A stretch of DNA of 64,000 bases from Vicinamibacterales bacterium (GTDB taxonomy: Bacteria > Acidobacteriota > Vicinamibacteria > Vicinamibacterales > UBA8438). This document shows, piece after piece, positions 2,842 through 60,766 of the stretch. The DNA lies in NCBI GenBank assembly GCA_965262985.1, contig OZ253576.1, positions 2,057,213 through 2,121,212 on the forward strand, read 5' to 3'. The position numbers were made by a program, and so were the translations under genes. Position 1 is the stretch's first letter. Each line of letters begins with the position of its first letter. The notes beneath the pieces are model-generated. The model did not search any database. It was not told where the DNA came from and was given only the letters and a program-made list of their open reading frames with translations.

Positions 2842-4788
2842 TCACAGAACGACGCGCTGCTGGCCGATCCGCCGCGTCACACGTTCCCGGTCCAGGTATT
2901 CGAGCAACGGTATGGCGAACTTCCGGCTGACACCGTAGCGGTCCTTGAACGTACCCACATCGATCCGGACCGGATCGGCCGACGTCTTGAGGCCCTGCAC
3001 ATCGTGCTTCAGATGCTCGAGGGCGGCCAGATCGAACACCAGCGGCCCCACCCGAACCACCCGTCTCTGGCGGACCAGCAGCGGCAGCACCCTGTCGAGC
3101 AGGTCCGGATCGCAGCCAAGATGCTCGACGATCGCAGCCGGGGCCGGCGGAGACAACCCGGCTTCCTGTACGAGCGCCAGCACCGCCTCGCTGAGGCGCG
3201 TTTCCTCCTGTGACAACGTGACCTCGTAACCGGCCAGCGCCAGCCGGTCCCTCGCCACGAGACGGCCGGTCCGAACCAGATCGGCCAGTACGGCGTCGAA
3301 CACGGCGCCGCCGGCGTACTTGAAGAGCCGCTCCCGTGCCTCTTCCCGCGGCATGCCCTCGCTGAGAGGGTGTTCGACATGGAATCGGGTGACGAGCGCC
3401 ATGAGACGTTCGCTGACGGTGCCCAACGCCGTGGCGTCGATCACCCGCTCGCCGATGCGCCGAACCGCACCCACTGACGCCAACCGCTCGGCCAGTGCAT
3501 CAGCCGCGCCGGCATTCAGACCGGCCCGCATCCTCAGCGCGGTCATCGAGAGCCCGGTCACTCCCAACTCACCCACAAGCACCCGCACGGCCCCTTCGTG
3601 ACCGCGGTCGCCGGCGCCCGCGGCATCCCCCTGCAACCGCGCCAGCCGGACCCTCGCCGCGGCGGTTCGCACGCCAGCGTGCGGTGGCTGCGGATCGATC
3701 ACCTCTCCCCCGGCAATGGTCAACGGAGGCGAGTACACGCGCAGGATGAAGCGATCCCCACGCGTCACCACGGCCGGAGATTCAAGTCGAATCCTGACGA
3801 ACGCCTGCCCGTTCGGCGGCAACTCGGCCGGCGCGTCCTCGGACGATTCGGCATCGTCAAGACGTGGGCCCAGGGCGACCCGGCCGAGGACCTCACTCGT
3901 CCCGTGATGGAAGCGGACGCGCGCCCCGTGTTTCAGGCGGCGCGCCGACGGCAACAGGCGGAGACGAGCATCGAGACGCCGCGTGGCCTCGAAACATCCT
4001 GGCGACACGGCCGTGTCGCCGCGTGTGATGTCGGCGACGTCGACCCCCGAGAGGTTCGCGGCCACACGCTGTCCCGCCACAGCGACCCGCTGCGACGCGC
4101 CGTGCGCCTGCAACCCCCGAATCTTGACGTCTCGGCCGGCCGGCAGCAGTTGCAACGTCGTATCCACCGAGACCCGACCAGACACGAGAGTGCCCGTCAC
4201 GACGGTACCGAATCCCTTGACCGAAAAGGCCCGATCGATCGGCAGGCGCACCGGACCGCGAGTCTGGCGGCCGCCCGCCTGCTTTGCCATTGCGACCAGG
4301 GCCGCCCGTACGTCGGCCAGCCCCTGGCCCGTTCGTACCGACACCGGTACGACCGCCGCATCGGCGAGAAAGGAGTCCGCCACCAGATCGGCGGTTTCGA
4401 GACGCACCAGCTCCACGGTGTCGGTGTCGACCAGATCCGCCTTGGTCAGTGCGACGACCCCGCGGGTGACACCCAGCAGGCGGCAGATGTCGAAGTGCTC
4501 GCGCGTCTGCGGCATGACCGATTCGTCGGCCGCGATCACCAGCAGCACGCCGTCGATACCACTCGCGCCGGCCAGCATGTTCTTGACGAATCGTTCGTGA
4601 CCCGGCACATCGACGAACGCCAACTGGGTCTCACCGGCATCGAGATGCGCGAACCCCAGGTCGATGGTGATGCCTCGCGACTTCTCCTCCTTGAGCCGGT
4701 CCGGATCGGTTCCGGTCAGCGCCTGCACGAGCGCACTCTTGCCGTGATCGATATGCCCGGCGGTTCCGACGACGACGTATCGCGTCAT
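2842..4788 (-). CDS. selB: Selenocysteine-specific translation elongation factor SelB
   Basis: N-terminal GTPase ([31 protein letters not shown]), EF-Tu-like domains II/III and a long winged-helix C-terminal extension. 648 aa. Confidence 0.92.
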
Positions 4789-4803: not shown

Positions 4804-4969
4804 CTAGCAGCCCGTGGTGGAACCCCGCGTTGCACCGAGATTGGCGCTGCGCCCGCGTGGCAAGGCGCGACGAGGGAGCAAATTGGGGCATTTGTGACCG
4901 AGGAGCAACGCCGCCACGTGGGATGCAGCGCCAATCGAATGCAGTGGGGATTTCACCACGGGCTGCTAG
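4804..4969 (+). repeat. MITE-like palindromic intergenic element, copy A (short form, 166 bp)
   Basis: CTAGCAGCCCGTGGTG...CACCACGGGCTGCTAG forms 16-bp perfect terminal inverted repeats. The whole element folds into one long imperfect hairpin. The core is GACGAGGGAGCAAATTGGGGCATTTGTGACCGAGGAGC. Related copies lie at 39320, 43235, 48345 and 60533. Confidence 0.9.
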
Positions 4970-7230
4970 CTCCGTCCGCGGCCACGGCGGGTCTGGCGCC
5001 CGGCAGCGGCGGGACGTCCTCTGCCGGCCACCCGGTTGCGCCGCGGCCCGCGGTTTCTGTCCGATTCCCGAACGGCGTCGAGAATTTCCACCAACCCCAA
5101 ATCGACGCGGCGCCGCACCGTATCCACCCGCACCACCTGCACCGCCACCGCGTCGCCCAGCCGGTATCGCTTGCGGGTGTTCTCGCCGACGAGCGCATGG
5201 TCCGTGTCGAAAAACCGGTAGTAGTCATCGGCCATGCTCGAGATGTGCACCATCCCTTCCACGAAGTGCTCGATCAGCTCGACGAACAGTCCGAACCCGG
5301 TCACCCCGGTGACGTAGCCGGAGAACTCGTCGCCCACCTTGTCCGCCATGAAGCGCACCTTCTTCCACTGCAGAATCTCCCGCTCGGCGTCCTCCGCTCT
5401 GCGCTCCACCGTGGACGTATGACGTCCGATCTCCGGCAGCTCGTCAGCAAGTTCTTCGATCCGATCCGCCGCCGTGCCACCCTGCCGCCGCTCACGCAGC
5501 AATCGATGCACGACCAGATCCGGATAGCGGCGAATCGGCGACGTGAAGTGCGTGTAGGTTTCTGACGCCAACCCGAAATGCCCGGCGTTCACGGCGGCGT
5601 ACCGCGCCTTTTGCATGGTCCGAAGCATCAGCAGCGCCACCGGCCGTTCCTCGGGCCGTCCATGCAGACGCCGCAGCAGCGCCTGGAAGTGTCGGGGCCG
5701 CACCAGTTCGGGCGACACCCCCAGACCGTATCCCAGGCTGCTCGTGAACGCGTCGAACTCGGCCACCTTGTCCCTGTCCGGCGCCTCATGCACGCGATAC
5801 AGCGCCGGCGCCCCGCTGTCCTGCAAGTAGCGGGCGATGGTTTCGTTGGCCACCAGCATGAACTCCTCGATGATGCGATGAGCCACGTTGCGGTCCGCCG
5901 CGACGATGTCCTCGACCATTCCGGCTTCGTCGAGCACCAACTGGGTCGCCTTGAGGTCGAAGTCGATCGACCCGCGACGCACCCGCCGGTCTCTCAACCG
6001 CCGATACACCGTGTGCATCGACTCGAACATCGGCACGAGCGCGGCGTACTCGCGTGAGGTCTCCGGGTCGCCCCGATTCAGGATGGCGTCGACCGCCGTA
6101 TAGGTCATTCGCGCGGCCGAGCGAATGACTCCGTCGTGCAGTTCGAAGCGCACGACGTCGCCCGTCGGATCGATGTCCATGAGGCACGACTGCACCAGAC
6201 GGTCGACCCCGGGATTCAAGCTGCACAATCCCGTGGCCAGCGGCGTGGGAAACATGTGCAGCGCGCGGTCCGGAAAATACACGGACGTTCCGCGGGTAAA
6301 GGCGCACTCGTCGAGCGCGGTCCCCTCCTTCACGTAGTGCGCCACGTCGGCGATGTGCACGCCCAACCGGATGTGGCCGTCGGACAGCGGCTCGAGGCTG
6401 ACCGCGTCGTCGAAGTCGCGCGCCGTCTCACCATCGATTGTGACCGTCGTATGCGAGCGAAAGTCGGTGCGTCCCCGCAGATCCCCCGCCGTGATCTCGG
6501 TTCCCATCCGCTCGGCCTCCGCGGCGGCGGCGGGATCGTGCGCATCCGGAATCCGGTATTTTCTGAGAATCAACTCCGTGTCGACGCCGGGGTCTTCGAG
6601 AGCGCCCAACACCTCGATGATGTGTCCGATCGGGCCGCGCGCCGGGGTCGGCCACCGATCGATCTCAGCCACGACCATCTGGCCGGACACCGCCCCCGCG
6701 GTCGCACCACTGGCGATCTGAATGTCCATGACCACCCGCGGATCGAACGGCACCACGAATCCAACCCCGCTCTGGTCAATCTCGTAGCGGCCGACGAGAT
6801 CCTGGTTGGCGCGCTCGAGCACCCGCACGATGCGACCCTCGCTGCGCCCCTCGGCGGGTTCGACCCGCACCGTCACCCGATCGTCGTGCATCGCCTGATG
6901 CAGGTTCACGCCGGCCACGAAGATGTCCCTCTCGCCGCGCTCGACCTCATCGTCCGGCGTCACGAACCCGAAACCCCGCGGATTGACCTGGAGACGGCCA
7001 ACCACGAGATTCATCCGATCTGCCAGACCGTACCGTTGTCCACGGATACGGATCATCGCGCCGGCGTCGACAAGCTGCCGGATCTCCCGCCGAAACCGAT
7101 ACCGATCGTTCCGGGTAATGCCGAGCACACGGATGAGCTCCCTGATGGTCGCCGGATGACCCACGCGTTCCCGAATCTGTCCGAGGAGGTCACCGGCCGG
7201 CGCATCGCCCGGTCTGTCGCTGTCAGTCAT
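4966..7230 (-). CDS. rnr: Ribonuclease R (RNB family 3'-5' exoribonuclease)
   Basis: Cold-shock/OB N-terminal region, RNB catalytic domain (TIDGETARDFDDAVS, HFGLASETYTHFTSPIRRYPDLVVHR), S1 domain and a basic Arg/Gly tail. I prefer the ATG at 7230, which overlaps the upstream stop as ATGACTGA. Confidence 0.93.
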   Translation of the reverse strand: MTDSDRPGDAPAGDLLGQIRERVGHPATIRELIRVLGITRNDRYRFRREIRQLVDAGAMIRIRGQRYGLADRMNLVVGRLQVNPRGFGFVTPDDEVERGERDIFVAGVNLHQAMHDDRVTVRVEPAEGRSEGRIVRVLERANQDLVGRYEIDQSGVGFVVPFDPRVVMDIQIASGATAGAVSGQMVVAEIDRWPTPARGPIGHIIEVLGALEDPGVDTELILRKYRIPDAHDPAAAAEAERMGTEITAGDLRGRTDFRSHTTVTIDGETARDFDDAVSLEPLSDGHIRLGVHIADVAHYVKEGTALDECAFTRGTSVYFPDRALHMFPTPLATGLCSLNPGVDRLVQSCLMDIDPTGDVVRFELHDGVIRSAARMTYTAVDAILNRGDPETSREYAALVPMFESMHTVYRRLRDRRVRRGSIDFDLKATQLVLDEAGMVEDIVAADRNVAHRIIEEFMLVANETIARYLQDSGAPALYRVHEAPDRDKVAEFDAFTSSLGYGLGVSPELVRPRHFQALLRRLHGRPEERPVALLMLRTMQKARYAAVNAGHFGLASETYTHFTSPIRRYPDLVVHRLLRERRQGGTAADRIEELADELPEIGRHTSTVERRAEDAEREILQWKKVRFMADKVGDEFSGYVTGVTGFGLFVELIEHFVEGMVHISSMADDYYRFFDTDHALVGENTRKRYRLGDAVAVQVVRVDTVRRRVDLGLVEILDAVRESDRNRGPRRNRVAGRGRPAAAGRQTRRGRGRS

Positions 7231-8494
7231 GCCGCGGCGGAGTGGTCGTGTTGCCGGCGAGCAGAATCTGGAGATCACCCACGTTGGTGCCGCTCGGCCC
7301 GGTCCGTATCAGGTCGCACAGCGGATCGAAGAAGCGGTAGGCGTCATTGTTGTCGAGGTAGTCGTGCGGACCGCCGAGATGCAGCGCCCGCGCCCGTGCC
7401 AGCGTGGTGGAATCCACCAGAGCGCCTGCAGCGTCCGTCGGTCCATCCACCCCGTCGGTGCCCACGCTGGCCAACACGACAGGAGCAGCCTGACGGTCCA
7501 GGCTGGCGGCGGCGGCCAGCGCCAGCTCCTGGTTTCGCCCGCCACGGCCCTTCCCCTGCACCGTGACCGTGGTCTCGCCGGACGACACCACGCAGACGGG
7601 CCCGGACGGACATCCACGCAGGGTCAGGCTGCGAGTTACATGTGCGGCACCGGCCACGCGGGCCTCTCCGGTCAGCGGCGCCTCCATCAACGTCACCGTG
7701 TACCCGAGCCGGCGCGCCTCCGACGCCGCGCCCGCCATGGCCTGCCGGCGACTGCCGATCAGACGGAACGTCGAACGGGCCGCCGCGGGGTGACCCGGTT
7801 TCAAGGTTTCCGGGACCTCCCCGGCGGCGCCGCGCTCCATGACGTCCAGCACGCTTGCCGGCATGCGACGTCGGATAGCTGGGGCGCCGGCGATCGACAA
7901 CGCCTGACGATACGTCGTCCGATCCGGAACGGTCGGTCCAGAACCGATCACCGCCGGATCGTCCTCGACCGGCCCCACCACATCCGAAATGGCCAGTGTC
8001 AGCACGCGCCCGCGGGCGGACAGCGCCAGACGTCCTCCCTTGACCTCTGACAGGTGCTTTCTGACGCAGTTCAGCTCATGAATCGGGACTCCGGCCGACA
8101 GCAGAATCCGCGTGGCGTCAATCTTCTCCTCAAGGGTCAATCCGTCGACCGGCGCGGCCAGCAGCGCCGACGCGCCACCGGACAGCAACACTAGCACACA
8201 CGACGACGGCTCCGACTGCGCGGCGCAGCGCAGTGCAGCGCGGCCCGCCTCGACGCTGCCCGCATCCGGCAACGGATGCCCACCCTGGAGCCACGACATC
8301 CCGGCCGGCACCGGCGCGCTGCGGTCCGGCCCCACCGCGACCCCGCGGGCGACCTGAACGGTGGTCGAGATCAGCAGACCGTCGATCATCCCCGCCGCCG
8401 CCTTTCCCGCCGCAATCAGGGTCGGGGCGGCGCCGATGGCGCTCCGCACCGCCGGGTCGGCGAGCGCAACCTGCATCAGACGCCGCGGCGCCAC
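7223..8494 (-). CDS. Glycerate 2-kinase / hydroxypyruvate reductase-like protein (MOFRL family)
   Basis: GAGKAAAGM, LLSGGASAL, RKHLSEVKGGRL, GETTVTVQGKGRGGRNQELALAAA and VGTDGVDGPTDAAGA motifs. The N-terminus probably extends upstream of the first canonical start (see findings). Confidence 0.85.
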   Translation of the reverse strand: MAPRRLMQVALADPAVRSAIGAAPTLIAAGKAAAGMIDGLLISTTVQVARGVAVGPDRSAPVPAGMSWLQGGHPLPDAGSVEAGRAALRCAAQSEPSSCVLVLLSGGASALLAAPVDGLTLEEKIDATRILLSAGVPIHELNCVRKHLSEVKGGRLALSARGRVLTLAISDVVGPVEDDPAVIGSGPTVPDRTTYRQALSIAGAPAIRRRMPASVLDVMERGAAGEVPETLKPGHPAAARSTFRLIGSRRQAMAGAASEARRLGYTVTLMEAPLTGEARVAGAAHVTRSLTLRGCPSGPVCVVSSGETTVTVQGKGRGGRNQELALAAAASLDRQAAPVVLASVGTDGVDGPTDAAGALVDSTTLARARALHLGGPHDYLDNNDAYRFFDPLCDLIRTGPSGTNVGDLQILLAGNTTTPPRHD

Positions 8495-38003: not shown

Positions 38004-38280
38004 TGGCAATCTACGATAGGGGCCGTTCTCCAGCCTTGTCAATAGGGTACCTCGGATGGGAGGGTCGCGCCATGCCGCCGATCCAGGTGCGACGCGGGGT
38101 CCTGCCATGGGCTGCCGGCAGGTCAGCCGGCGTCGAGCGGCGGCAACTGCTCGCGGCGCCGGTCCGCGTCGAGAGACCGCACGTCGAGTCCAGTCTCGCA
38201 CTCGTCACAGAGCAACTCGAAGATCGATCGATCGCTGAGGGTGTTACATCCGTGGCGCGACCAGGGGCAGTTGCGATACG

Positions 38281-38490
38281 ATGCTGGCGGCCATGACGAC
38301 TGACAGGACCGACTTCAAGATCGCGACCGAGTCACGCGGCGCACGCTGGGTCGCGTGGGTAACCACGAACGAGAGCGACACACCGCTCGGTTCGGTGCTG
38401 CTGATGGGCCGGACACAGGCCGAGGCAGAGGCCAACGCGCACGCCTGGGCCGACAAGCTGGCCAGCGACCCCGTGCTGATGCGACTCTGA
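38281..38490 (+). CDS. Small hypothetical protein (HicB/UPF0150-like pattern; inference)
   Basis: 69 aa with high GC3. The pattern FKIATESRGARWVAWV...G.TQAEAEANAHAWADKL fits a beta-beta-beta-alpha antitoxin-like fold. Confidence 0.5.
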   Translation: MLAAMTTDRTDFKIATESRGARWVAWVTTNESDTPLGSVLLMGRTQAEAEANAHAWADKLASDPVLMRL

Positions 38491-38507
38491 CCGGGACGGG
38501 GCCTCGT

Positions 38508-38768
38508 TCACACCTGAACCGCCGCAAACCGGCCGCCCCTGCGATCCGTGGGCAGCAGCGACCCCGCCGTATGGTGGACGGTTGTGCAGTGCGGCCCTTT
38601 CACCTCCAACGCGACGACATCCAGACCGAGCGCTCTGGCGACGTAGCCGCCCGCCACGCACCCGCAGGGCAGGGCTGCGAATTCCCGGAGTTCGAAAAGC
38701 GGCCCCAGTGACGACTGCTCATCCCGTGCTGCCGGCATCGCTCCCCCCAGGTTGGCATGTTGGCTCAT
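38508..38768 (-). CDS. Small hypothetical Cys/His-containing protein
   Basis: 86 aa, moderately high GC3, LPCGCVAGGY...KGPHC. It converges on the 38281 ORF with a 17-bp gap. No SD sequence and no known family. Confidence 0.4.
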   Translation of the reverse strand: MSQHANLGGAMPAARDEQSSLGPLFELREFAALPCGCVAGGYVARALGLDVVALEVKGPHCTTVHHTAGSLLPTDRRGGRFAAVQV

Positions 38769-38967
38769 GTGTGATTAGACGCGGGAGCGCGGCATTTGGT
38801 CCCTCCACACCCGCCGCCTTGTGGAAAACGTGTGGATGATGTGTGCATCGCCTGTGAATCGAATGTCGAATGAAATTTTTTCTGCGCGAGGAAGACGCGC
38901 CATTGCGAGGCGCGCCGCGATGTGCACCCGTCTTCGTCCTTTCCTTCGCTTGGCGACCCTCGGGCAA

Positions 38968-39234
38968 ATGGCTAAGATTTCATACGTCACCTCGGCAACC
39001 CTGACCCCCTGCAGTATCGTGAACGTCCAGCGCATCGAACACGTCATCAACGGCCGCGCCTATCAGATTGAGGCGATGCTTGTCGATCCGGATCGATGGC
39101 GCGCGTATCTGGTCAGTGTTCCCGGCGGCTCGACGGCGCTCATGCCGTTCTACGGCGCGACCCCCGAACTGGCGGTGCAACAGCTCACTGCCTGGCTGAC
39201 TCTGGCCCACCAGGCGCCCACAATTCCGGTATAG
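38968..39234 (+). CDS. Small hypothetical protein, possible paralog of 38281..38490
   Basis: The internal ATG at 38968 gives 88 aa (MAKISYVTSATL...). DRWRAYLVSVPGGSTALMPFYGATPELAVQQLTAWLTL parallels ARWVAWVTT...GRTQAEAEANAHAWADKL. Confidence 0.5.
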   Translation: MAKISYVTSATLTPCSIVNVQRIEHVINGRAYQIEAMLVDPDRWRAYLVSVPGGSTALMPFYGATPELAVQQLTAWLTLAHQAPTIPV

Positions 39235-39319
39235 TACGAACTCGAACGCCGTGGCGCCTCACGTTCGGGCGACAGGCTGACCTGAACCGTACCGGCTCAC
39301 GCGGCGTTGCGCCAATCTC

Positions 39320-39536
39320 ATGGCAGTCCGTGATGAATCCCCGCGTTGCACCGGGATCTGGTCGTCACAATTCCGCGTACGGCCGTTGCAAAGCGCGACG
39401 AGGGAGCAAATTGGGAGATTTGTGACCCCGGCAATCAGAAGCCCAGCGCCGCCCGACGCGGGACAGGGAGCAAATTGGGAAATTTGCGACCGCAGCGCCG
39501 ATCGAATGCAGCGGGGCTTTCACCGCGGGCTGCTCG
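39320..39536 (+). repeat. MITE-like palindromic intergenic element, copy B (long form, two core hairpins, decayed ends)
   Basis: GCAGTCCGTGATGAATCCCCGCGTTGCACCGGG...GACGAGGGAGCAAATTGGGAGATTTGTGACC...CAGGGAGCAAATTGGGAAATTTGCGACCGCAGCGCCGATCGAATGCAGCGGGGCTTTCACCGCGGGCTGC. Confidence 0.85.
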
Positions 39537-40585
39537 GGCTCTCGTTGATCGCGGCACTGTTCTGGACGCCGCTCCAGGAATCAACCGCCGCACAACCGGC
39601 GCGCGTACGCCTGATCACGACCGGCGGCACCATCTCGAACCGGGCGGGAATCCGGCTGTCTCCGCAAGAACTGCTCGCCACGGTGCCGGACCTTGACGAT
39701 CTCGTCGAGGCCGAGGCCGAGGAATTCGCCAATGTCGCAAGCAGCGCGCTGACCCTGGACCAGTGGATGCAACTGTCGCGCCGGATCAACGACCTGTTCC
39801 GGACGGATCGCACACTGGCCGGCATCGTGGTGACGAGCGGCACCGACACGCTGGAGGAATTCGCCTACTTCCTGCACCTGACCGTCAGGGACGCGCGGCC
39901 CGTGGTCGTCGTCGGATCGATGCGCCGTCCCGACACGCTGGCGTATGACGGCGCCGCAAATCTGAGACAGGCGTTGCGCATGGCCGGCGACCCCGGCTCG
40001 CACGGTCGAGGGGTGCTGGTCGTCTTCAATGACGAGATCGACTCGGCGCGCGACGTGACCAAGACCAGCACCTCGCACCTGCAGGCGTTCGAGTCGCGGG
40101 GCTACGGGGTGCTGGGCCACGCTGCCCGCGATCGCATTGTGTATTATCGCCGGTTGGAACGGCGTCACACCGTGACGAGCGAGTTCGACGTCGACCGGAT
40201 TCCCCGCCTTCCGCGGGTGGACATTGTCATGGCGTATCAGGGCGCCTCGGGCGATCTGATCCGCGCCGCGGTGAATCGGGGCGCCGCCGGCATCGTGGTG
40301 GCCGGAGCCGGAGCCGGAGCGACCAGCGCCGGACAGGGCGACGCGATCGCCTATGCATCCGAGCGAGGCGCGGTGGTGGTGATGACGTCACGTACGGGCC
40401 GCGGGCGTATCGTCCCGCGCGGCGCCACGCTGCCCGAACCTGATGACAATCAGGACCTGCCTGCCCGCCGCCAGCGCATCGCAGGCGACGATCTTGCCCC
40501 GGTCAAGGCGCGGGTACTGCTGATGCTCGCACTGACAGTCTCGAAGGACCGTGACGAGATCCAACGGATGTTCGGAGAGTACTGA
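39506..40585 (+). CDS. L-asparaginase (type II-like, probably secreted)
   Basis: LITTGGTISN, SGTDTLEEFAYFL and the rest of the asparaginase core. The ATG at 39506 gives a signal-like N-terminus (MQRGFHRGLLGLSLIAALFW...). That ATG lies inside repeat copy B, so the start is uncertain. Confidence 0.88.
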   Translation: MQRGFHRGLLGLSLIAALFWTPLQESTAAQPARVRLITTGGTISNRAGIRLSPQELLATVPDLDDLVEAEAEEFANVASSALTLDQWMQLSRRINDLFRTDRTLAGIVVTSGTDTLEEFAYFLHLTVRDARPVVVVGSMRRPDTLAYDGAANLRQALRMAGDPGSHGRGVLVVFNDEIDSARDVTKTSTSHLQAFESRGYGVLGHAARDRIVYYRRLERRHTVTSEFDVDRIPRLPRVDIVMAYQGASGDLIRAAVNRGAAGIVVAGAGAGATSAGQGDAIAYASERGAVVVMTSRTGRGRIVPRGATLPEPDDNQDLPARRQRIAGDDLAPVKARVLLMLALTVSKDRDEIQRMFGEY

Positions 40586-40597
40586 CCCGCACCAGCC

Positions 40598-40635
40598 CGG
40601 ACCAGGCAACCACACGGGTTGCCCCGCAGGCGCGG
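40598..40635. repeat. REP-like hairpin unit (single copy of the 37-bp family)
   Basis: GGACCAGGCAACCACACGGGTTGCCCCGCAGG, with stem GGCAACC/GGTTGCC. It sits between the convergent stops at 40585 (+) and 40644 (-). Near-identical units form the tandem array at 51709. Confidence 0.75.
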
Positions 40636-40643
40636 CGGTGCCG

Positions 40644-41717
40644 CTACGCAATGCCGGCGCCAAGGACGCCGACGTACACGGCGTAGAGCGACTGGCTGGC
40701 GGTCATGAACAGGCGGTTGCGTCTGGTGCCGCCGAAGCAGACGTTGGCGCAGCGCTCGGGAAGCCGAATCGCCCCGATCAGGTCGCCGTCCGGCGCCGTA
40801 ACGAGCACTCCATCGCCCGCGCCGGCCCAGACGTTGCCATCGACATCGCACCTGATGCCGTCGGCCGCGACCACGTTCTCGGACCCCGGTGCGTGCAGTT
40901 CCGCATGCCGGCGGCCGCGCGCGAGCCGGGTGCCCTCGACGTCGAAAACGCGAATCTCACGGCCCGACCCGGTATCCGCCACATACAGCCGGCTGTAGTC
41001 AGGTGAGAAGCAGAGACCGTTCGGACCACCCGGCTCATCGGTCACGAGCGTGACCTGGCCGTTCCCCGGATCGACTCGGTATACGGCCGGGGGGGTCTCG
41101 GATTCGGCGCGGAACCCCTCATAGTCACCGCGAATGCCGTAGGGCGGATCGCTGAACCAGATGCCCCCATCCGGATGCACCACGGCGTCGTTCGGCGAAT
41201 TGAGCCGTTTGCCGTCATACCGGTCGGCGATGACGGTGACATCGCCGTTCTGCTCATACCTGGCGACCCGCCGGCCGCCATGCTCGCAGGAGAGCTGGCG
41301 TCCTTCGCGGTCGAACGTGTTGCCGTTGCTGTGACCCGAGGGGCTCCGAAACACCGTGACCCGTCCGTCGTCCTGAATCCATCGGTGCTGGACGTTGTTG
41401 GGGATGTCACTCCAGACCAGATACTGTCCTACCCCGTTCCACGCCGGTCCCTCGGCCCACATGGTGCCGATGTGCAGCCGCCTGATCGGCGTATTGAAGA
41501 GAATGTAGCGGCGAAACCGGGGATCGAGTGCGATGAGATCGGGGTCCGGATAGGGCAACGGGTTCTGCCCGGACCAGTCTCGCGGTGCGTAGGGCGGTAC
41601 TTGCGGCGCCTGCTGCCGCGCCCATGCCGGCGCGGCGATGCTCCCGGCGAATGCCGTGCCAAGAAACGCCCGGCGTGTCCACGCCGAATTCCTGTCGTTC
41701 CGCTGCTGATCCGCCAT
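40644..41717 (-). CDS. SMP-30/gluconolactonase/LRE family protein with a Tat-type signal
   Basis: RRAFLGTAFAGSIAAPAWA twin-arginine signal, six-bladed propeller motifs, NGLCFSPDYSRLYVADTG. ATG at 41717. Confidence 0.85.
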   Translation of the reverse strand: MADQQRNDRNSAWTRRAFLGTAFAGSIAAPAWARQQAPQVPPYAPRDWSGQNPLPYPDPDLIALDPRFRRYILFNTPIRRLHIGTMWAEGPAWNGVGQYLVWSDIPNNVQHRWIQDDGRVTVFRSPSGHSNGNTFDREGRQLSCEHGGRRVARYEQNGDVTVIADRYDGKRLNSPNDAVVHPDGGIWFSDPPYGIRGDYEGFRAESETPPAVYRVDPGNGQVTLVTDEPGGPNGLCFSPDYSRLYVADTGSGREIRVFDVEGTRLARGRRHAELHAPGSENVVAADGIRCDVDGNVWAGAGDGVLVTAPDGDLIGAIRLPERCANVCFGGTRRNRLFMTASQSLYAVYVGVLGAGIA

Positions 41718-41811
41718 GGCTGTCTGTCTCCGGCGCCTCACGTGCGGGGCGCGCCGCGGTGCCTGCCGTCCGCATTCCGGTTCGGAGCGGGGTGGACATG
41801 TCGTCGCACGA

Positions 41812-43179
41812 TCATGGCTGTCCACCGGCCGCGGAAATCCGGTAGAGCTTCGTGGCGGTCCGGATGATCAGGCTGTCGCGCGCAACCGCCGGCGTGGACA
41901 GCGTCATCTCGTCGAGCGAGTTCCGCCCCAGCACCGCGAACTCGGGGCCGGCCTGGATGACGAACGTATCGCCATCCTCGCTCAACACGAAGAGCTTGCC
42001 GTTGTAGGCCCACGGCGACGCGGTGAACAGGGTCCCCGCCGTAATCCGCCGGCGCTGGTAGACCTCCTGTCCGGTGCGTGCGTCATACGCCATCAGGATG
42101 CCCCGATCGAGCAACGTGTAGTGATAGTCGCCGTACACGATGGACGACGGATTGTAGGACCCCAACTGCGGGTGCGACCACACGACGTAGTCGTTGCTGG
42201 TCGATCCCTCGGGCAACGTGATGTCACCGCTGGCGCCGGGACGGATCGCATACACGGGACGATTCTCGTCAGCGACATACCCGGAGTTGATATACAGGAG
42301 CCCGTGGTCGGAGAACGGAGTCGGGATCACGAGGGTCGACATGCCGGTCAGGCGCCAGAGCAGCGTTCCGTCCAGTCCGTAGGACCGGACACCGTTCCGA
42401 CCGGTCGTGACGACCTCGGTCCGCACGTCGTTCTCCCACACGAATGGCGTCGACCAGTTCGATCCCTCGTCCCGGTCGGTCCGCCACAGTTCGTTGCCGG
42501 TCGCGGCGTCGAATGCGGCGACCCACGACTGCTCTTCGTTGTCGTTGACGACATACAACCGGCCGTCGTGCAGCACCGGCGACGACGCCGCGCCCCATTC
42601 GCGACGCGGCAGCCATTCGAAATCGACCGACCAGACCAGCCGGCCGTCGAAATCGACGGCGAACATCCCGATATCCGCCATGTAGACATACACGCGTTCT
42701 CCGTCGGTGACCGGCGTCTCCGATGCGAACGTGCTTTTCTGATGCGTCGGCAATGCGGGAACGGATTCGTGCAAGGTCTGCTCCCAGCGGACCGCGCCGG
42801 TCTCGAAATCGATGTCGTAGAGCACCCATTGCAGCGGCTCGGTCTGCGTGGTGATGTAGGCCGCGGTCATGGCTCCGCCAAGCGACCGCGCACGGTAGTT
42901 CTCAATCGGCTGGATGGGCACTTCCGGCCCGCTGACCGCGGTGGAGGTCAGCACGAACACATGGTCGCCCCAGACGATTGGGGAGGCCCACCCCCGCCCC
43001 GGCATATCGATTTCCCAGGCAACGTTTTCACCCGGACCCCACCTGTCGGGCAACGCCGGATTGTCGGCCACGACCCCGGCGGCCACACCACGGAACTGCG
43101 GCCAGTTGTCCTGAGCGGTCACCGGAGATGCGCTCAACCAGACCAGTCCCAGAGCAAGCAGCGTCAGCCGAATCGTCAT
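41812..43179 (-). CDS. PQQ-like beta-propeller repeat protein (secreted)
   Basis: GGAGAGGAA SD, signal peptide MTIRLTLLALGLVWLSASPVTAQ, the NWPQFRG motif, and repeated W/G propeller blades. Confidence 0.85.
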   Translation of the reverse strand: MTIRLTLLALGLVWLSASPVTAQDNWPQFRGVAAGVVADNPALPDRWGPGENVAWEIDMPGRGWASPIVWGDHVFVLTSTAVSGPEVPIQPIENYRARSLGGAMTAAYITTQTEPLQWVLYDIDFETGAVRWEQTLHESVPALPTHQKSTFASETPVTDGERVYVYMADIGMFAVDFDGRLVWSVDFEWLPRREWGAASSPVLHDGRLYVVNDNEEQSWVAAFDAATGNELWRTDRDEGSNWSTPFVWENDVRTEVVTTGRNGVRSYGLDGTLLWRLTGMSTLVIPTPFSDHGLLYINSGYVADENRPVYAIRPGASGDITLPEGSTSNDYVVWSHPQLGSYNPSSIVYGDYHYTLLDRGILMAYDARTGQEVYQRRRITAGTLFTASPWAYNGKLFVLSEDGDTFVIQAGPEFAVLGRNSLDEMTLSTPAVARDSLIIRTATKLYRISAAGGQP

Positions 43180-43234
43180 TTCCTCTCCTCGAGATCGCCG
43201 GAATCAATCAACACACCGGCGGTTTGGCGGTATT

Positions 43235-43399
43235 CTAGCAGTTCGTGGCAGAACCCCGCGTGCACCGAGCGTAGCGCGGCGCCCGGCTGGCAAGGCGAGA
43301 CGAGGGAGCATATTGGGTATATGCGACCGAGGAGCAACGCCGCCCAGGCGGGATGCCGCGCAGCGCGAATGCCGCGGGGCTTCCGTCACGGACTGCTCG
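43235..43399 (+). repeat. MITE-like palindromic intergenic element, copy C (short form, 165 bp)
   Basis: CTAGCAGTTCGTGGCAGAACCCCGCGTGCACCGAGCG...GACGAGGGAGCATATTGGGTATATGCGACCGAGGAGCAACGCCGCC...GCGAATGCCGCGGGGCTTCCGTCACGGACTGCTCG. Confidence 0.9.
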
Positions 43400-43443
43400 C
43401 AGTTCGTGGTAGAACCCCGCGTGCACCGAGCGCGGCGCGGCGA
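43400..43443 (+). repeat. Partial tandem duplicate of the element's 5' module
   Basis: CAGTTCGTGGTAGAACCCCGCGTGCACCGAGCG repeats positions 43239-43271 almost exactly, immediately after the copy C 3' end. Confidence 0.8.
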
Positions 43444-43460
43444 GAACGACACAGGACCTC

Positions 43461-44585
43461 ATGAACAGACGGATCTCGGGCGCCGCGCTGACGTGCGCCC
43501 TTCTCTCGTTCGGCGCGGCCGGCAATGCGAACGCCCAGCCGCCATCCGATCACTTCGTGCCGTCCCGGCCCGACACGCTGAGTTGGGGCTGGTTTCCCCT
43601 GGACAAACCGCCGGTCCTGACCATCGTGTCCGGTGAGACGGTCCTGGTCGACACGCTCTCTCACGCCGGCTCGACCCAGAATGACCACCCGGCCGTCTCA
43701 CTCGGCGCGTTGGGAGTCGAACCTGACGAGATCCTGAAGGACGTGATCGACTTCTGGGCGTCGCGAGAATCACGCCCACGGGACGGACGCAGCGGGCACG
43801 TCATCACCGGACCAATTGCCATCGCGGGGGCGGAACCTGGCGACATGCTCGAAGTACAGGTGCTCGAGCTGACGATCCGGGCGCCGTACGGCATCAACAA
43901 CACCGGTCCGACGAGCGGCGTGTTCGCACGCGATTACCCGGGGTCGCGCCCCGCCGACAGACCTCGTGACATTGCGAATGCACGCCATCTCATCCGCACC
44001 GGCGCGGTCGACGGCGTCGAGGTCGCCCTGTTCTCCGACGGCGTCCAGGTTCCGCTCGCGCCGTTCATGGGCATCATGGCGGTCGCGCCGACGCCGGTGG
44101 TCGGTGAACCGGGCGTCACCGTACCGGGCGTGCAGGCATCGCGGCCGCCGGGCGCCTTTGGGGGCAACCTGGACGTCAAGGACCTGACCGCCGGCAGTAC
44201 GCTGTATCTGCCGGTCTTCCATCCCGGCGCCCTCTTCTACGTGGGCGACCCGCACGCGGCGCAGGGGGACGGAGAGGTCAGCGGAACCGCCATCGAGCAG
44301 TCCCTGTCCGGCCGCTTCCGTTTCGTGTTGCACAATAACAGGCCGATCAGGATGCCCTGGGCCGAGACCGACACCCACTACATCCTGATGGGCATCGACC
44401 TGGACCTGAACCGCGCACTCCAGCAGGCGGTGGACGAAGTGGTCGCATTCCTGGTGGCGGAGAAGGGGCTCACCCCGACCAAGGCGGTCTCGCTGGCGAG
44501 TATCGCGGTCGACTTTCAGGTGGCGGAAGCGGTCGATCTGACCCAACTCGTGACGGGAAAAATTCCCAAACATATCTTCCGATGA
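43461..44585 (+). CDS. Acetamidase/formamidase family protein (secreted)
   Basis: Signal peptide and FmdA/AmdA motifs (GPIAIAGAEPGDMLEV, GGNLDVKDLTAGSTLYLPVFHPGALFYVGDPHAAQGDGEVSGTAIE). Confidence 0.9.
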   Translation: MNRRISGAALTCALLSFGAAGNANAQPPSDHFVPSRPDTLSWGWFPLDKPPVLTIVSGETVLVDTLSHAGSTQNDHPAVSLGALGVEPDEILKDVIDFWASRESRPRDGRSGHVITGPIAIAGAEPGDMLEVQVLELTIRAPYGINNTGPTSGVFARDYPGSRPADRPRDIANARHLIRTGAVDGVEVALFSDGVQVPLAPFMGIMAVAPTPVVGEPGVTVPGVQASRPPGAFGGNLDVKDLTAGSTLYLPVFHPGALFYVGDPHAAQGDGEVSGTAIEQSLSGRFRFVLHNNRPIRMPWAETDTHYILMGIDLDLNRALQQAVDEVVAFLVAEKGLTPTKAVSLASIAVDFQVAEAVDLTQLVTGKIPKHIFR

Positions 44586-45502
44586 CACGAGCCATGACAC
44601 GAGCAACCACCCTCGGCACGTTACTGGCCGCCGCCCTGATCACGGTCGCGGCGATGGGCGGCATGGCGCAGGAGCAGCACACGGTCACCGTGCAGAGCAT
44701 GGATGTCCGTGAGAATCTCTACGTCATCAGCGGCGGCGGCGGGCACACCGCCGCGCTCGTGACGGAGAACCAAGGGGTCGTCCTTGTCGACACCAAACTC
44801 GCCGGCTGGGGACCGTCGATTCTGACGACGATTCAGGCCATCACCGATCAGCCGGTGACCACGATCATCAACACCCATACCCATGGGGACCATGTGGGCG
44901 GCAACGTCGATTTTCCTGCGACGGTCACGGTCGTCGCTCACGAGCGAGCCGCCGACCGCATGGCCGGCATGGAGGCGTTTGCCGGAGCAGGCGCCGAGTT
45001 TCTGCCGGACCGCACATATTCGAACCGGCTGACGTTGTTCGACGGCCGCGACCAGATCGACCTCTACCACTTCGGCGCGGGCCACACCGACGGAGACACG
45101 GTGGTCGTCTTTCCAGCGCTCGGTACGGCGCATCTGGGCGATCTGTTCGCGTTCATGGGTCCCCCATACATCGATGTGAGCAACGGTGGCAGCGGCGTGG
45201 CGTATCCCGACACCCTCGACCGGATCGTCACCTCGGTGCAAGGTGTCCGGCGGGTGATTCCCGGCCACATCCCTCCGCCTGCGGGCAGCCCGATGCGGGG
45301 CTGGACCACGTGGGAAGACCTGCAGGAGTACGCTCGCTTCAACCGCGAGTTCCTCGACTCGGTGCGCGGGTCACGCGATGCCGGACGCACGGTCGACGAG
45401 GCGGTCGCGGCGCTGGACCTCTGGGAACGGTATCCCGCCTACGACAGGGCCCGGGCCGACGCCAACGTCCAGGCGATCTACGACGAGCTGGGATCCCGAT
45501 GA
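44582..45502 (+). CDS. MBL-fold metallo-hydrolase (secreted)
   Basis: INTHTHGDHVGGN metal site and a signal peptide. Its start overlaps the formamidase stop as ATGA. Confidence 0.88.
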   Translation: MTRAMTRATTLGTLLAAALITVAAMGGMAQEQHTVTVQSMDVRENLYVISGGGGHTAALVTENQGVVLVDTKLAGWGPSILTTIQAITDQPVTTIINTHTHGDHVGGNVDFPATVTVVAHERAADRMAGMEAFAGAGAEFLPDRTYSNRLTLFDGRDQIDLYHFGAGHTDGDTVVVFPALGTAHLGDLFAFMGPPYIDVSNGGSGVAYPDTLDRIVTSVQGVRRVIPGHIPPPAGSPMRGWTTWEDLQEYARFNREFLDSVRGSRDAGRTVDEAVAALDLWERYPAYDRARADANVQAIYDELGSR

Positions 45503-45557
45503 GACGTCAGGCGACCGGGTCGGCCCGGCCGGCGGCATCCGCGACGGTAACGAACAC

Positions 45558-46892
45558 ATGAAGACACCTGCGCACATGATCCGGATAGTGACTGCGAGCG
45601 CCGTCCTGCTCACCCTTGGCGTGTACCCGATGTCCGCCGACGACTGGCCCGAATTCCGTGGCAAGGGTCGGATGGGCGTCTGGGCCGAATCTGACATTCT
45701 CGAGACCTTTCCCAGCGGCGGCCTCACCGTGCGCTGGCGCACACCGATTCATCACGGCTTCTCCGGACCGGCCGTCGCGGACGGCCGCATCTTCGTGACC
45801 GACTTCGAACGTGCGCGCGGGCTCGACGGCATCGAGCGCATTCTGTGCCTGGACGAGGAGACCGGCGACATTCTGTGGACCCAAAGCTGGGAAGCCAGCT
45901 ACCTCGGCATCTCGTGGGATGAGGGTCCTCGCGCCACCCCGACCGTGGACCGCGACCAGGTCTACGCTGTCGGCGCCAGCGGCGTCATGACCGCGCTGCG
46001 GGTCGACACCGGCGAGGTGTTGTGGCGTACACGCTTCGTCGAGGACTGGGGCGCCGAAGTGCCGCAGTGGGGGTTCAGCAGTGCGCCGCTCGTCGACGGC
46101 GACCGTGTCATCACGCTCGTCGGCGGAACACCGGACGCGAAGGTCGTCGCCTTCGACCGGACCACCGGCGCGGAGGTCTGGCGAGCGCTGTCCTCGGTCG
46201 AGTCTGGCGCCGGCGTGGGAACGCCGATCATCACCGAGGCCGGCGGGGTCCGGCAACTCGTGATCTGGCATCCGCTGGCGGTCTCGTCACTCGATCCGGT
46301 CACCGGCGAGGTCTACTGGGAGCAGCCGTTCGAAGTCGGATATGACATGACCGTCGCCACCCCGGTGCGGCAGGGATCGGATCTGTTCGTGACCACGTTC
46401 TACGACGGGCCAATGATGCTGGGCCTCGACAACGACCGGCCGGACGCCGAGATGCGCTGGCGAGGCAACAGCAACAGCGAGATCCTGACCGACGGTCTGC
46501 ACGCGGTGATCGGCACCCCGATCATTCAGGGCGGCTACATCTACGGGTTCGGTTCCTACGGACAGTTGCGTTGCCTGGTCGCCGCCACCGGCGAGCGGGT
46601 GTGGGAAAGCCAGGAAGCGACCGGCGAACGCGCGCGGTGGGCAAGCGCGTTCATGGTGCAGCACGAAGACCGCGTGTTCATCAACAACGACCGCGGCGAT
46701 CTGATCATTGCCAGATTGTCACCGGCGGGCTATGAGGAAATCAGCCGGACGCCGTTGATCGCGCCGACCTCGCGCCCCGGCAACCGCCGCGAACTCAGCT
46801 ACGTCAACTGGTCGCACCCTGCCTACGCCAACCGGCACATCATCGCCAGAAACGACGAGGAGATCATCTCGGCCTCGCTCGCCGCGCGGTGA
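45558..46892 (+). CDS. PQQ-like beta-propeller repeat protein (secreted), paralog of 50038..51384
   Basis: ATG at 45558, a signal peptide, DDWPEFRGKGRMGVW, and C-terminal NWSHPAYANRHIIARNDEEI. By eye it is about half identical to the 50038 gene product. Confidence 0.85.
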   Translation: MKTPAHMIRIVTASAVLLTLGVYPMSADDWPEFRGKGRMGVWAESDILETFPSGGLTVRWRTPIHHGFSGPAVADGRIFVTDFERARGLDGIERILCLDEETGDILWTQSWEASYLGISWDEGPRATPTVDRDQVYAVGASGVMTALRVDTGEVLWRTRFVEDWGAEVPQWGFSSAPLVDGDRVITLVGGTPDAKVVAFDRTTGAEVWRALSSVESGAGVGTPIITEAGGVRQLVIWHPLAVSSLDPVTGEVYWEQPFEVGYDMTVATPVRQGSDLFVTTFYDGPMMLGLDNDRPDAEMRWRGNSNSEILTDGLHAVIGTPIIQGGYIYGFGSYGQLRCLVAATGERVWESQEATGERARWASAFMVQHEDRVFINNDRGDLIIARLSPAGYEEISRTPLIAPTSRPGNRRELSYVNWSHPAYANRHIIARNDEEIISASLAAR

Positions 46893-48344: not shown

Positions 48345-48411
48345 GCAGTCCGTGGCGCAGCCGCACGCAACACCGAGCGAATGGCGCGGGGCTGTCACCA
48401 CGAATCGTCAG
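48345..48411 (+). repeat. MITE-like element, copy E (internally deleted mini form, about 67 bp)
   Basis: GCAGTCCGTGGCGCAGCCGCACGCAACACCGAGCGAATGGCGCGGGGCTGTCACCACGAATCGTCAG matches the 5' arm plus the 3' arm of the full copies and lacks the central core. Confidence 0.7.
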
Positions 48412-50036
48412 CCCGTGATGCGGCGACCGCAGCCTCGAGCCATTGCCCAGCCGCCTCCCTCGCCCTCGCGCCAGTAGCGCAGTTGCGGGGGGCCTGGCCG
48501 GGCCGTGTACGCGTCGACCTCTACGAAGCTGTAGCAGGGCGGCAACTGCTCCGGCTGCAGCGCCTCAAGCAGTTCGATGTCAGACGATCCCCGGTCGTTC
48601 CTGAACCGGTCCAGCATCACCGGCGTGACGGTCCGCTGCCAAGCGCCGCCATTGATCACGATCGGGGCGACCGCATCACGTACCGGCGAAAATCCGTCCA
48701 CGACATACCTCCCCCCCGCTTCGACACGCGTGAAGTTGCTCTGCCGGAAGTCGGCGAGATGGGTATGTCCGTGGATGAACACCGCGATCGGCGCCCCGTC
48801 GCCCCGGCGACGCTCCAACTGGCGCTGGAACAACCGGTCGCGCGACTGCCAGAAGTACTCGAACCGCGGTCCGGTCGTCTCTACCGTGCGGGGACATTCC
48901 GCGACCGGCGGACCCAGCGGGTCGATCTGGGTGAGAATCCGCTCGAACCTGCGTCGCGCCCGGCGCACGGCGGCGCGCTGGTCGCAGAGCGCCCTCAACT
49001 CGTCGTCGCTCAGCGCGGTCATCAGCGCGTCGAGTTGGCCGGCGGCGAACGCCTGTGCCGCCAACGGCTGGAGGCGGTCGTCATCCGGCACCGACCCCAC
49101 CAGAAACGCCGCCCCTTCCGCGCGCACCTGGTCGATCCGCCACTCCGGCGGCTGGACGTCGCCACTATCGAGATCCATCCGGAACTGTTGCCACGAAAAC
49201 CGGAACAGCAACTCGCGCAGCAGCACCGGCGCGGCCGCGCCAACATCGTCCGCTCCGGTCGCCGCCAGCGCGAAGCGCAGTCCCGCCGTTTCGTCAGCGA
49301 GGTTGTCGACGACCGGAAACCGCGTCTCGTAGCGGTCGAAGAGCGTCAGGAGCATCTTCCGGTCCGCGGACTGCTCGACGTGCCGGCGACCGGCGTGTTC
49401 GACGAACGGCGCCGGCCACGCCTCGAACCGGTCGGCGCCGGTTCCGATCTGATGACCATGTTCCACGTGGACCAGACCGTCCACCGAGCGCCAGAATCCT
49501 TGCGCCGCAAGCGTGACCCGACCGGCGGCGGCCCCGAAGGCCGCGACCGCGCGGGTCCCCGCCTCTGGAAACAGCAGCGCCGCATCATGCTCACCGGGCA
49601 CCAGCACGACGCGGTTGTCACCGGCGCCCGCGAAGGCGCCGAGGGCGCGCAGCTCGCGCGCATGGGCGTCCAGCACGCGCTCGAGCCTGGCCAGTGCTTC
49701 TGTTTCGGTACACCCGAGGTCCGGTTCCTCATGCGCACAGGGCGTCACGGACATCTGCGCCAGATCAAAGGTGTCCCCGTTGAGAATCAGGTCCGTCGGC
49801 TCGTCCGTCTCGGACGCCAGCGCCTCGAGGAACAGGTCCAGGTCGTCGGCCCACCGGAAGTCTTCGTTGGGAAACCACTCCCCCGCGCTGTCCCGTCCCT
49901 CCCCCATGTGCAGGTCGGACAGCACCACGATGCGCCGGGGTCCTTCCGGGGCAGGCTGCGCACGCGCCGGCGGCGCCAGGCAGGCGCCGAGCATGCCGAC
50001 CAGTCCGAGTGACACGGCGACAGCCGGCGAAAGCAC
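48408..50036 (-). CDS. Metallophosphoesterase family protein (secreted)
   Basis: IVVLSDLHMGEG, NGDTFDL, PGEHD and HGHTH motifs. The GTG at 50036 abuts the upstream stop. An ATG at 50108 would add a twin-arginine-like N-terminus (WRRRRSVLS) but overlaps the upstream gene by 71 nt. Confidence 0.72.
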   Translation of the reverse strand: MLSPAVAVSLGLVGMLGACLAPPARAQPAPEGPRRIVVLSDLHMGEGRDSAGEWFPNEDFRWADDLDLFLEALASETDEPTDLILNGDTFDLAQMSVTPCAHEEPDLGCTETEALARLERVLDAHARELRALGAFAGAGDNRVVLVPGEHDAALLFPEAGTRAVAAFGAAAGRVTLAAQGFWRSVDGLVHVEHGHQIGTGADRFEAWPAPFVEHAGRRHVEQSADRKMLLTLFDRYETRFPVVDNLADETAGLRFALAATGADDVGAAAPVLLRELLFRFSWQQFRMDLDSGDVQPPEWRIDQVRAEGAAFLVGSVPDDDRLQPLAAQAFAAGQLDALMTALSDDELRALCDQRAAVRRARRRFERILTQIDPLGPPVAECPRTVETTGPRFEYFWQSRDRLFQRQLERRRGDGAPIAVFIHGHTHLADFRQSNFTRVEAGGRYVVDGFSPVRDAVAPIVINGGAWQRTVTPVMLDRFRNDRGSSDIELLEALQPEQLPPCYSFVEVDAYTARPGPPQLRYWREGEGGGWAMARGCGRRITG

Positions 50037-50037
50037 G

Positions 50038-51708: not shown

Positions 51709-51832
51709 GGACCGGGCAACCACAAGGGTTGCCCCTACGGAGACGAGACCGGGCAACCACAAGGGTTGCCCCTACGGGGACGGGGTCGCGCAACCACAAG
51801 GGTTGCCCCTACGGGGACGGGGTCGCGCAACC
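51709..51832. repeat. Tandem array (about 3.3 units, 37-bp period) of a double-hairpin repeat
   Basis: GCAAC recurs at 51716, 51753, 51790 and 51827. Unit: GGGCAACCACAAGGGTTGCCCCTACGGGGACGGGGTCGC, with stems GGCAACC/GGTTGCC and CCCC/GGGG. It lies between convergent genes. Confidence 0.92.
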
Positions 51833-60532: not shown

Positions 60533-60766
60533 CTTAGGAGCCCGTGGTGAAACCGCGCGTCGCACCGAGCGTGGCGAGGCGCCCGCGTGGCAAGGCGTGA
60601 CGAGGGAGCATATTGGGCATATGTGACCGAGGAGCCAAGCGGATCGGCAGGCTTTGATGCCGATCCGCAGGCCGTAGCGCTGTCCAGGCGGGGCAGGGAG
60701 CAAATTGGGAAATTTGCGACCGCATCGCCGCGCGAATGCCGCGGGGCTTTCACCACGGACTCCTAG
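60533..60766 (+). repeat. MITE-like palindromic intergenic element, copy D (long form, 234 bp, two cores plus an extra hairpin)
   Basis: CTTAGGAGCCCGTGGTGAAACCGCGCGTCGCACCGAGCG...GACGAGGGAGCATATTGGGCATATGTGACCGAGGAGCC...GCGGATCGGCAGGCTTTGATGCCGATCCGC...CAGGGAGCAAATTGGGAAATTTGCGACC...GGGGCTTTCACCACGGACTCCTAG. Confidence 0.9.

Follow-up and report, generated by a model that had tools for sequence, protein, structure and literature searches.

What occupies the spacer between rnr and selB in this member of the Vicinamibacterales, how might it have arrived there, and does its interior do anything besides travel? The Vicinamibacterales are abundant soil bacteria, mostly known from metagenome-assembled genomes. 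In the 64-kb stretch of DNA analyzed here (the window), the rnr-selB spacer is filled by a 166-nt hairpin-forming sequence with relatives at several other places (Table 1). These repeats are very probably small, non-coding mobile elements (MITEs) of the Vicinamibacterales, with ends common to an insertion sequence of the IS5/IS1182 type and a tendency toward CTAG at stop codons. The MITE family is real, mobile and previously uncatalogued, and it belongs to a known kind. One feature that could take it beyond an ordinary MITE is a conserved core with covarying arms.

Table 1. Elements, fragments and neighboring genes in the window.
Feature	Position	Strand	Description
selB	2842..4788	-	Pfam GTP_EFTU and SelB winged-helix domains
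Copy A	4804..4969	+	166-nt short-form MITE; CTAG and 16-nt inverted repeat at each end; fills rnr-selB spacer
Conserved core of copy A	4849..4925	+	Element positions ~46-122; 88-90% column identity
rnr stop codon TAG	4966..4968	-	Inside right-hand CTAG of copy A
rnr (RNase R)	4966..7278	-	ORF; Pfam RNB, CSD2, S1; upstream of selB, same strand
Solo left-arm fragment	38076..38117	-	Found by nhmmer with left-arm profile; opposite orientation
Copy B	39320..39536	+	217-nt long variant; second apical module CAGGGAGCAAATTGGGAAATTTGCGACC; decayed ends ATGG / CTCG
Copy C	43235..43399	+	Short form; same site occupied in sister genome
Partial second copy, left arm only	43397..43442	+	In tandem with copy C
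Copy D	48345..48411	+	Core-less remnant: 13 nt of left inverted repeat and ~40 nt of right arm
Copy E	60533..60766	+	234-nt long variant; TTAG left, CTAG right; -137.7 kcal/mol

Copy A (CTAGCAGCCCGTGGTG...CACCACGGGCTGCTAG, window 4804-4969) scores 184 bits against the covariance model of the family. Its + strand folds into a single near-uninterrupted hairpin (-119 kcal/mol, z -13.9); the fold of the - strand reaches -103 kcal/mol (z -10.8). A preliminary description of this DNA had proposed a hairpin bounded by CTAG on either side and ending in inverted repeats of 16 nt, and sequence and folds confirm it. The same description placed copy A in the rnr-selB spacer with the rnr stop codon inside its right-hand CTAG. 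ORF and Pfam results agree on the stop codon and on the identity of both genes; between the selB ATG and the left end of the element there are 15 nt. A scan of copy A for an intrinsic terminator (U-tract) and for a sigma-70 promoter pattern found neither, and the element is not an intrinsic terminator.

The rnr-selB junction is without copy A in related genomes. In the sister genome OZ244838.1, which has about 95% DNA identity to the window, the spacer is 27 nt (locus L170; SelB 92% identical). In locus L171 it is 17 nt (SelB 74% identical), and in L172 it consists of 206 nt of unrelated sequence. As the site is empty in the closest genome, the insertion of copy A appears recent, and the element would have landed on the rnr stop codon with the stop preserved. 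A near-twin of copy A, 98.8% identical, is present at another locus of the sister genome (L071). The 27-nt spacer of L170 (2974-3000) reads TAG-GACTGCGATAC-GAGCGCAGG and includes GACTGCGATA, in which 10 nt are similar to the right end of the element (GGCTGC-TA). Because of this resemblance the 'empty' site could be a deletion remnant; the spacer could represent an end-mimicking target, or the footprint of an excision or deletion, and not a naive site. Since the spacer of relatives is only 17-27 nt, it is plausible that rnr and selB are co-transcribed, with the hairpin of copy A within the operon. Such a transcript would carry the antisense, weaker-folding strand (that of -103 kcal/mol). In the rnr-selB mRNA the hairpin might mark a processing site, affect stability or block translational coupling.

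Five related elements had been listed for the window, and copies B to E do align to copy A, but two pieces had been missed (38076-38117 and 43397-43442). The core 19-mer, with three mismatches allowed, occurs six times in the window versus 0.02 expected. The apical module is duplicated in the long variants B and E, and copy E carries, along with this second module, an inserted perfect hairpin, GCGGATCGGCAGGC...GCCGATCCGC. Copy C and its orthologue in the sister genome (locus L019) are identical at 126 of 127 shared positions; the sister genome is without 72 nt at this site, corresponding to the outer right arm of C and the tandem left arm. The preliminary description gave copies A and D ends of CTAG or TTAG. 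This is correct for copy A (CTAG), but copy D ends in TCAG, which shares nucleotides with the stop codon (TGA) of a - strand gene, 48408-50108, and the TTAG/CTAG combination belongs to copy E. The claim that all copies have the same orientation is not strictly true, because the solo left arm lies on the opposite strand. Family-wide, the fetched loci divide 57 vs 51 between the two orientations. Element strand is not correlated with local GC skew (p = 0.56), and the same-strand pattern within the window is treated as chance.

A second repeat, unrelated to the MITE, is also found in the window. It is a REP-like hairpin, GGGCAACCACAAGGGTTGCCCCTACGGGGACGGGGTC, with three 37-nt units in tandem at 51713-51832 and a solitary copy at 40604-40624. 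Its stem pattern has 8 strand-wise matches in the window vs 0.07 expected.

The family extends well outside the window. An exact scan with the core 19-mer across 185,579 species genomes gave at least 88 loci among the matches listed, all of them in Vicinamibacterales or Acidobacteriota MAGs. Chromosome OZ244838.1 contributes at least 22 of 80 loci among the matches listed. Core and inverted-repeat patterns had no matches in viral contigs. Profile searches with nhmmer over the window and the 88 loci (746 kb) return 109-136 matches, and the boundaries of 44 full-length copies are sharp, with unrelated sequence on either side. When the index copy of each locus is left out of the count, an additional element turns up about every 23.5 kb of flank; the overall frequency is about one per 10-25 kb. 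The standard element is 158-166 nt long and the long variants 217-234 nt. Neither has coding capacity, and the core occurs as TTGGGGC or TTGGGC, a 1-nt difference that breaks any common reading frame. The element starts with CAGCCCGTGGTGAAA, ends in the inverted complement, and is bounded by CTAG (or CTAA); terminal inverted repeats of CAGCCCGTGGTG(A/G)AA and its complement are present in at least 36 aligned copies. Copies lie almost exclusively between genes, whether these are convergent, divergent or in tandem. Copies from the same genome share one arm subtype, which indicates proliferation within genomes.

The site of copy B is likewise empty in the sister genome. Its locus L019 and window 38005-46222 are syntenic (88-96% identity), and around the site of copy B the flanks are 95-96% identical. 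The empty site reads ...CCTG-ATAG-GGCTCTCG, and the window reads ...CTC-ATGG-(element)-CTCG-GGCTCTCG. The presence/absence patterns look like those of a recently active element. A dispersed, mobile family with terminal inverted repeats had been proposed from the window. It is borne out by more than 100 further copies in related genomes and by the empty sites for A and B in OZ244838.1.

The preliminary description did not recognize the element as a member of a known repeat family, and neither do Rfam or the searchable literature. An Rfam scan of the 64-kb window at the gathering threshold gave no matches. Permissive searches (E up to 10) with copies A and E returned just generic long-hairpin models (plant miRNA precursors), far below gathering scores. 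The literature on Vicinamibacter and Acidobacteria MITEs and on the IS1182 target contained no description of the family. Going by these literature and Rfam searches, it is the first repeat family described for the Vicinamibacterales, and it matters to the assembly, annotation and strain typing of their genomes.

The 64-kb window contains no transposase gene, as noted at the outset. A candidate partner was located with the left-arm profile, which finds two 19-nt ends, inverted and 1.47 kb apart, in locus L073. The insertion sequence at 1054-2525 of that locus, CTAG-CAGCCCGTGGTGAAAG...CTTTCACCACGGGCTG-CTAG, has a single ORF for a transposase of ~465 aa. The protein matches DUF772 (PF05598; 1e-18, 67.5 bits vs a threshold of 23.1) and DDE_Tnp_1 (PF01609; 28.5 bits vs a threshold of 23). 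Its best NCBIfam model is IS1182 (NF033551; 171.8 bits, below the cut-off of 270), the second is IS5 (102 bits, below the cut-off of 140), and otherwise ISNCY is matched. By its domain content the partner belongs to the IS5/IS1182 superfamily. There are at least 580 relatives of the L073 type in metagenomes; of 80 that were fetched (64-83% identity), nearly all keep the ends and the CTAG flanks. The wider transposase family comprises ~8000 clusters at E up to 1e-60, with sources that include Gemmatimonadales, Acidobacteria and Vicinamibacterales. The nearest annotated plasmid relatives are 50-54% identical, for example one on a Sphingobium plasmid (50% identity) with the termini CTAA-CAGGCCGT...GCGCTG-CTAG. 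Among the best 120 of the ~8000 transposase relatives, none is on the source contig or on the OZ244838.1 contig.

The similarity between MITE and insertion sequence covers CTAG and the adjoining 15 nt at the left end, and 19 nt with the CTAG that follows them at the right end, and stops there. With just these outer 15-19 nt in common, the MITE is not a simple internal-deletion derivative of the insertion sequence. The matching ends suggest mobilization in trans by an L073-type transposase. The enzyme would cut the MITE at its ends and insert it at the TA of a CTAG/CTAR site, with duplication of the TA or of the whole tetranucleotide. Two other leads were considered and dropped. A transposase fragment in L031, 70% identical and adjoining a MITE, has no physical link to it as a partner. 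The idea that an ATG and a TGA retained in the core are the start and stop codons of a transposase gene since lost was abandoned because many copies read ATATTCGACC instead.

Two features of the insertion sequences themselves may be recorded here. In L073 (2400-2525) and at the right ends in L089-L168, the transposase ORF continues across the right inverted repeat as far as the flanking TAG, where it stops; the target site therefore supplies the stop codon. In L095, L106, L109, L126 and L148 the left flank holds a ~33-nt mini-hairpin of fused left and right ends (...CGTGGTGAAAGTCTGCACGGGCTGCTAG), after which the copies continue with a diverged end, AGCAGCCCACGGTAACAG.

IS630 transposases prefer CTAG targets, and the element was initially attributed to an IS630-type enzyme on that basis. 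Under that reading it would be a MITE of IS630/Tc1-mariner type, whose transposase targets CTAG and duplicates the TA. The CTAG flanks and the known preference of IS630 agree with this, and unequal flanks fit a TA-only duplication slightly better. Against it, the sole insertion sequence with matching ends, identical over 15-19 nt, encodes DUF772 and DDE_Tnp_1 and has no IS630/Tc1 domain in Pfam or NCBIfam. Those termini recur in nearly all of the 80 relatives fetched, and no IS630-type gene with these ends occurs in ~1 Mb of related sequence. The IS630 attribution is rejected because the transposase found with the matching ends is of the IS5/IS1182 type, and an IS630 origin is now very improbable.

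Spread by a RAYT transposase (HUH, IS200-like) acting on single-stranded hairpins, as for REP/REPIN elements, has equally little chance of being correct. The long-hairpin architecture, the intergenic location of copies and the retention of pairing while sequence turns over would suit such a mechanism. However, REP units are 20-40 nt with a GTAG or CGTC head (PMC3733652), and the present element is 166 nt with CTAG flanks. Its termini are exactly those of a DDE insertion sequence, and its orientation is unlinked to local GC skew.

Most copies have CTAG or CTAA at both ends. Among 39 copies the flanking 4-mer is CTAG in 18 on the left and 14 on the right, where CTAA is common; left and right 4-mers are identical in 11. 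Empty sites have a single tetranucleotide: ATAG in L019 and L170, TTAG in L088 and CTAG in L040. CTAG is palindromic, which makes the duplication length unreadable: a TA (2-bp) duplication, a 4-bp duplication and a part of the inverted repeat are indistinguishable here. Flank pairs of the CTGG/CCAG type look inverted, not direct. Some intact insertion sequences have unequal flanks (TTAG/CTAG in L131, TTAG/CTAA in L135, CTAG/CTAA in L136 and L111), which would fit TA duplication within YTAR slightly better. Precedents exist for both lengths: the direct repeats are 4 bp in ISPse1 of the IS1182 family, whose inverted repeats match at 16/16, and the repeats are 2 bp in the IS427 group of IS5 (PMC3281130).

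In the 746 kb of loci plus window, CTAG is depleted ~7-fold (304 observed vs 2243 expected). The stop codon of a neighboring gene is inside the terminal CTAG/CTAA in 21 of 47 full-length copies (TAG 20 times, TAA twice). It is inferred that CTAG depletion causes this landing on stop codons: the remaining CTAG sites would be largely TAG stops, the element would insert there, and the duplication would preserve the stop codon. The family would in that case be an example of safe-site targeting, in which CTAG specificity in CTAG-depleted genomes sends an element onto stops and duplication restores them. By rough gene calls over the same 746 kb, TAG accounts for 226 of 522 stop codons, unusually high for 66% G+C. 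A different CTAG-bounded insertion, ~190 nt long (CTAGGAGCTTGCGCCGCAGAA...), is present in L044 at 1675-1867 and absent near 1272-1274 of L088, where the empty site is GCC-TTAG-ACGCC; these genomes are 98.6% identical. Several CTAG-targeting MITE families therefore coexist.

The interior of the element is less easily placed. In copy A the core comprises the stem GCGCCCG/CGGGAUGC, which includes a G.U pair and a bulged A; an internal loop rich in purines, where the direct repeat GACGAGGGAGCA / GACCGAGGAGCA lies; and, at the apex, the hairpin CAAAT-TGGGGC-ATTTG. For 43 elements, column identity is 88-90% in the core vs 65-70% in the outer arms, a difference that is partly ascertainment, as the core pattern served as bait. 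About 20 elements from other genomes have the same central ~77-88 nt between arms that are wholly different yet paired, with CTAG or CTAA at the ends. Examples of such alternative arms are CTAGTGTCCCG...CGGGACACTAG and CTAAGTGGTCCCGG...CCGGGGCCACTAA. Core-bearing elements with yet other arms also occur in L171 and L172, which were picked via SelB and not by the core pattern. Across subfamilies, conservation is higher in the core than in the inverted repeats, the reverse of what is predicted for a purely selfish MITE.

Comparison of one more intergenic region illustrates the variety of arms. Between the TonB and GroEL genes, L171 (6885-7049, - strand) and L172 (6994-7169, + strand) have elements with different arms; in L169, from the genome of the window, and in L170 this region is just 84-88 nt and holds no element. 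Ends can also occur without the core. A ~112-nt element in L047 (~908-1021) has CTAGTG...CACTAG ends and no core, and its empty site, with a single CTAG, is found in L040 (~6764-6797). Since core-less elements with CTAGTG ends exist, ends and core combine as separate modules.

Pairing is maintained throughout the element. RNAalifold on 36 copies gives 56 pairs, 21 with compensatory changes. With the covariance model all 43 elements can be aligned over their full length, even where the arms are unrelated. Of the cells in this alignment 94% are paired, compared with 75 ± 0.5% after shuffling and 29-45% in controls that were slid; double changes occur in 48 of 56 pairs, and there are 406 compensatory cells vs 99.5 ± 10.9 when shuffled. 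All these figures lean towards pairing because the structure itself was used to fit the alignment. In 36 of 39 copies the more stable fold is that of the + strand. G.U counts are alike for the two strands (4.5 vs 5.2) and are uninformative on strand-specific selection for an RNA.

These observations can be read in two ways. In one, the element requires its core in cis in order to propagate or be retained, or the core is a functional hairpin cargo. In the other, palindrome-correcting mutation and the repeated acquisition of new ends explain the pattern with no function. In the more specific form of the first, the ~77-nt core would be a functional module under purifying selection, a protein-binding or regulatory RNA or DNA hairpin that several MITE lineages with different ends carry and merely spread. 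As a transcribed RNA it could act in mRNA processing or stability or bind a protein, and as DNA it could be recognized by a protein of the host or of the element; either would be compatible with mobility, with the core as the part under selection. Candidate parts of such a module are the purine-rich loop strands GACGAGGGAGCA / GACCGAGGAGCAAC, the G.U pair with the bulged A, and the covarying apical hairpin. Besides the conservation, the SelB-located elements and the compensated pairs, it is favored by covariation of a 'loop' pair (columns 66:103, CG 21 to UA 10), by conservation of the G.U pair and bulged A, and by the better folding of the + strand. Between co-directional genes there is also a weak excess of sense orientation (25 sense vs 11 antisense, ~p = 0.06 after duplicate removal).

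Several points weigh against a functional core. Quasipalindrome mutagenesis, in which template switching corrects one arm against the other, yields compensatory changes in long DNA palindromes without selection. Compensated pairs can therefore arise with no function, and the bias of a structure-fitted alignment adds to them. Equal G.U counts between strands do not favor an RNA. In three comparisons orthologous copies did not clearly evolve more slowly than their flanks (divergence of 0.8% vs 2.1%, 4.8% vs 2.8% and 1.2% vs 1.5%). Core-less derivatives such as copy D and the L047 element persist, there is no Rfam match, and copy A is antisense to its operon. A functional structured core is doubtful, though considerably less so than the IS630 or REP/REPIN readings. 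If it were true, the elements would be vehicles for structured 'cargo' and not plain selfish DNA. In either case, a conserved core with covarying arms raises the question of what MITE persistence needs besides transposase-binding ends.

As mobile elements these repeats resemble several known systems. The partner is like members of the IS1182 and IS5 families, e.g., ISPse1, in its DUF772 and DDE_Tnp_1 domains, a single ORF of ~465 aa in ~1.47 kb, ~16-nt inverted repeats and a putative 2-4 bp duplication at a CTAR-type site (PMC3281130). It differs in falling below both NCBI cut-offs and in using the flanking TAG as the stop of its ORF. Bacterial MITEs linked to insertion sequences are likewise small, non-coding and multi-copy, with the inverted repeats of the autonomous element and presence/absence polymorphism between close genomes, and their flanking target repeats have a probable counterpart in the CTAG flanks. 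In contrast to these, just the outer 15-19 nt of the present element come from the insertion sequence, its interior is a conserved module that also occurs with other ends, and the whole element, not just the inverted repeats, is self-complementary.

RUP of Streptococcus pneumoniae is a short, hairpin-forming MITE mobilized by IS630 in a CTAG/TA context. The Vicinamibacterales element shares the context and the hairpin, but its partner is of the IS5/IS1182 type, not IS630. ERIC/IRU of the Enterobacteria and the Correia elements of Neisseria are imperfect palindromes of 100-170 nt that lie between genes and are frequently transcribed together with their neighbors. They have a conserved centre, TA insertion, size variants from internal insertions and compensatory stem changes. 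The Vicinamibacterales MITE resembles them in its intergenic palindromic form, conserved centre, size variants and compensatory stem changes, and may do so in co-transcription and TA insertion. It belongs to a different phylum and has no sequence similarity that could be seen, and, unlike ERIC/IRU and Correia, it has an identified matching autonomous insertion sequence and a CTAG target at stop codons.
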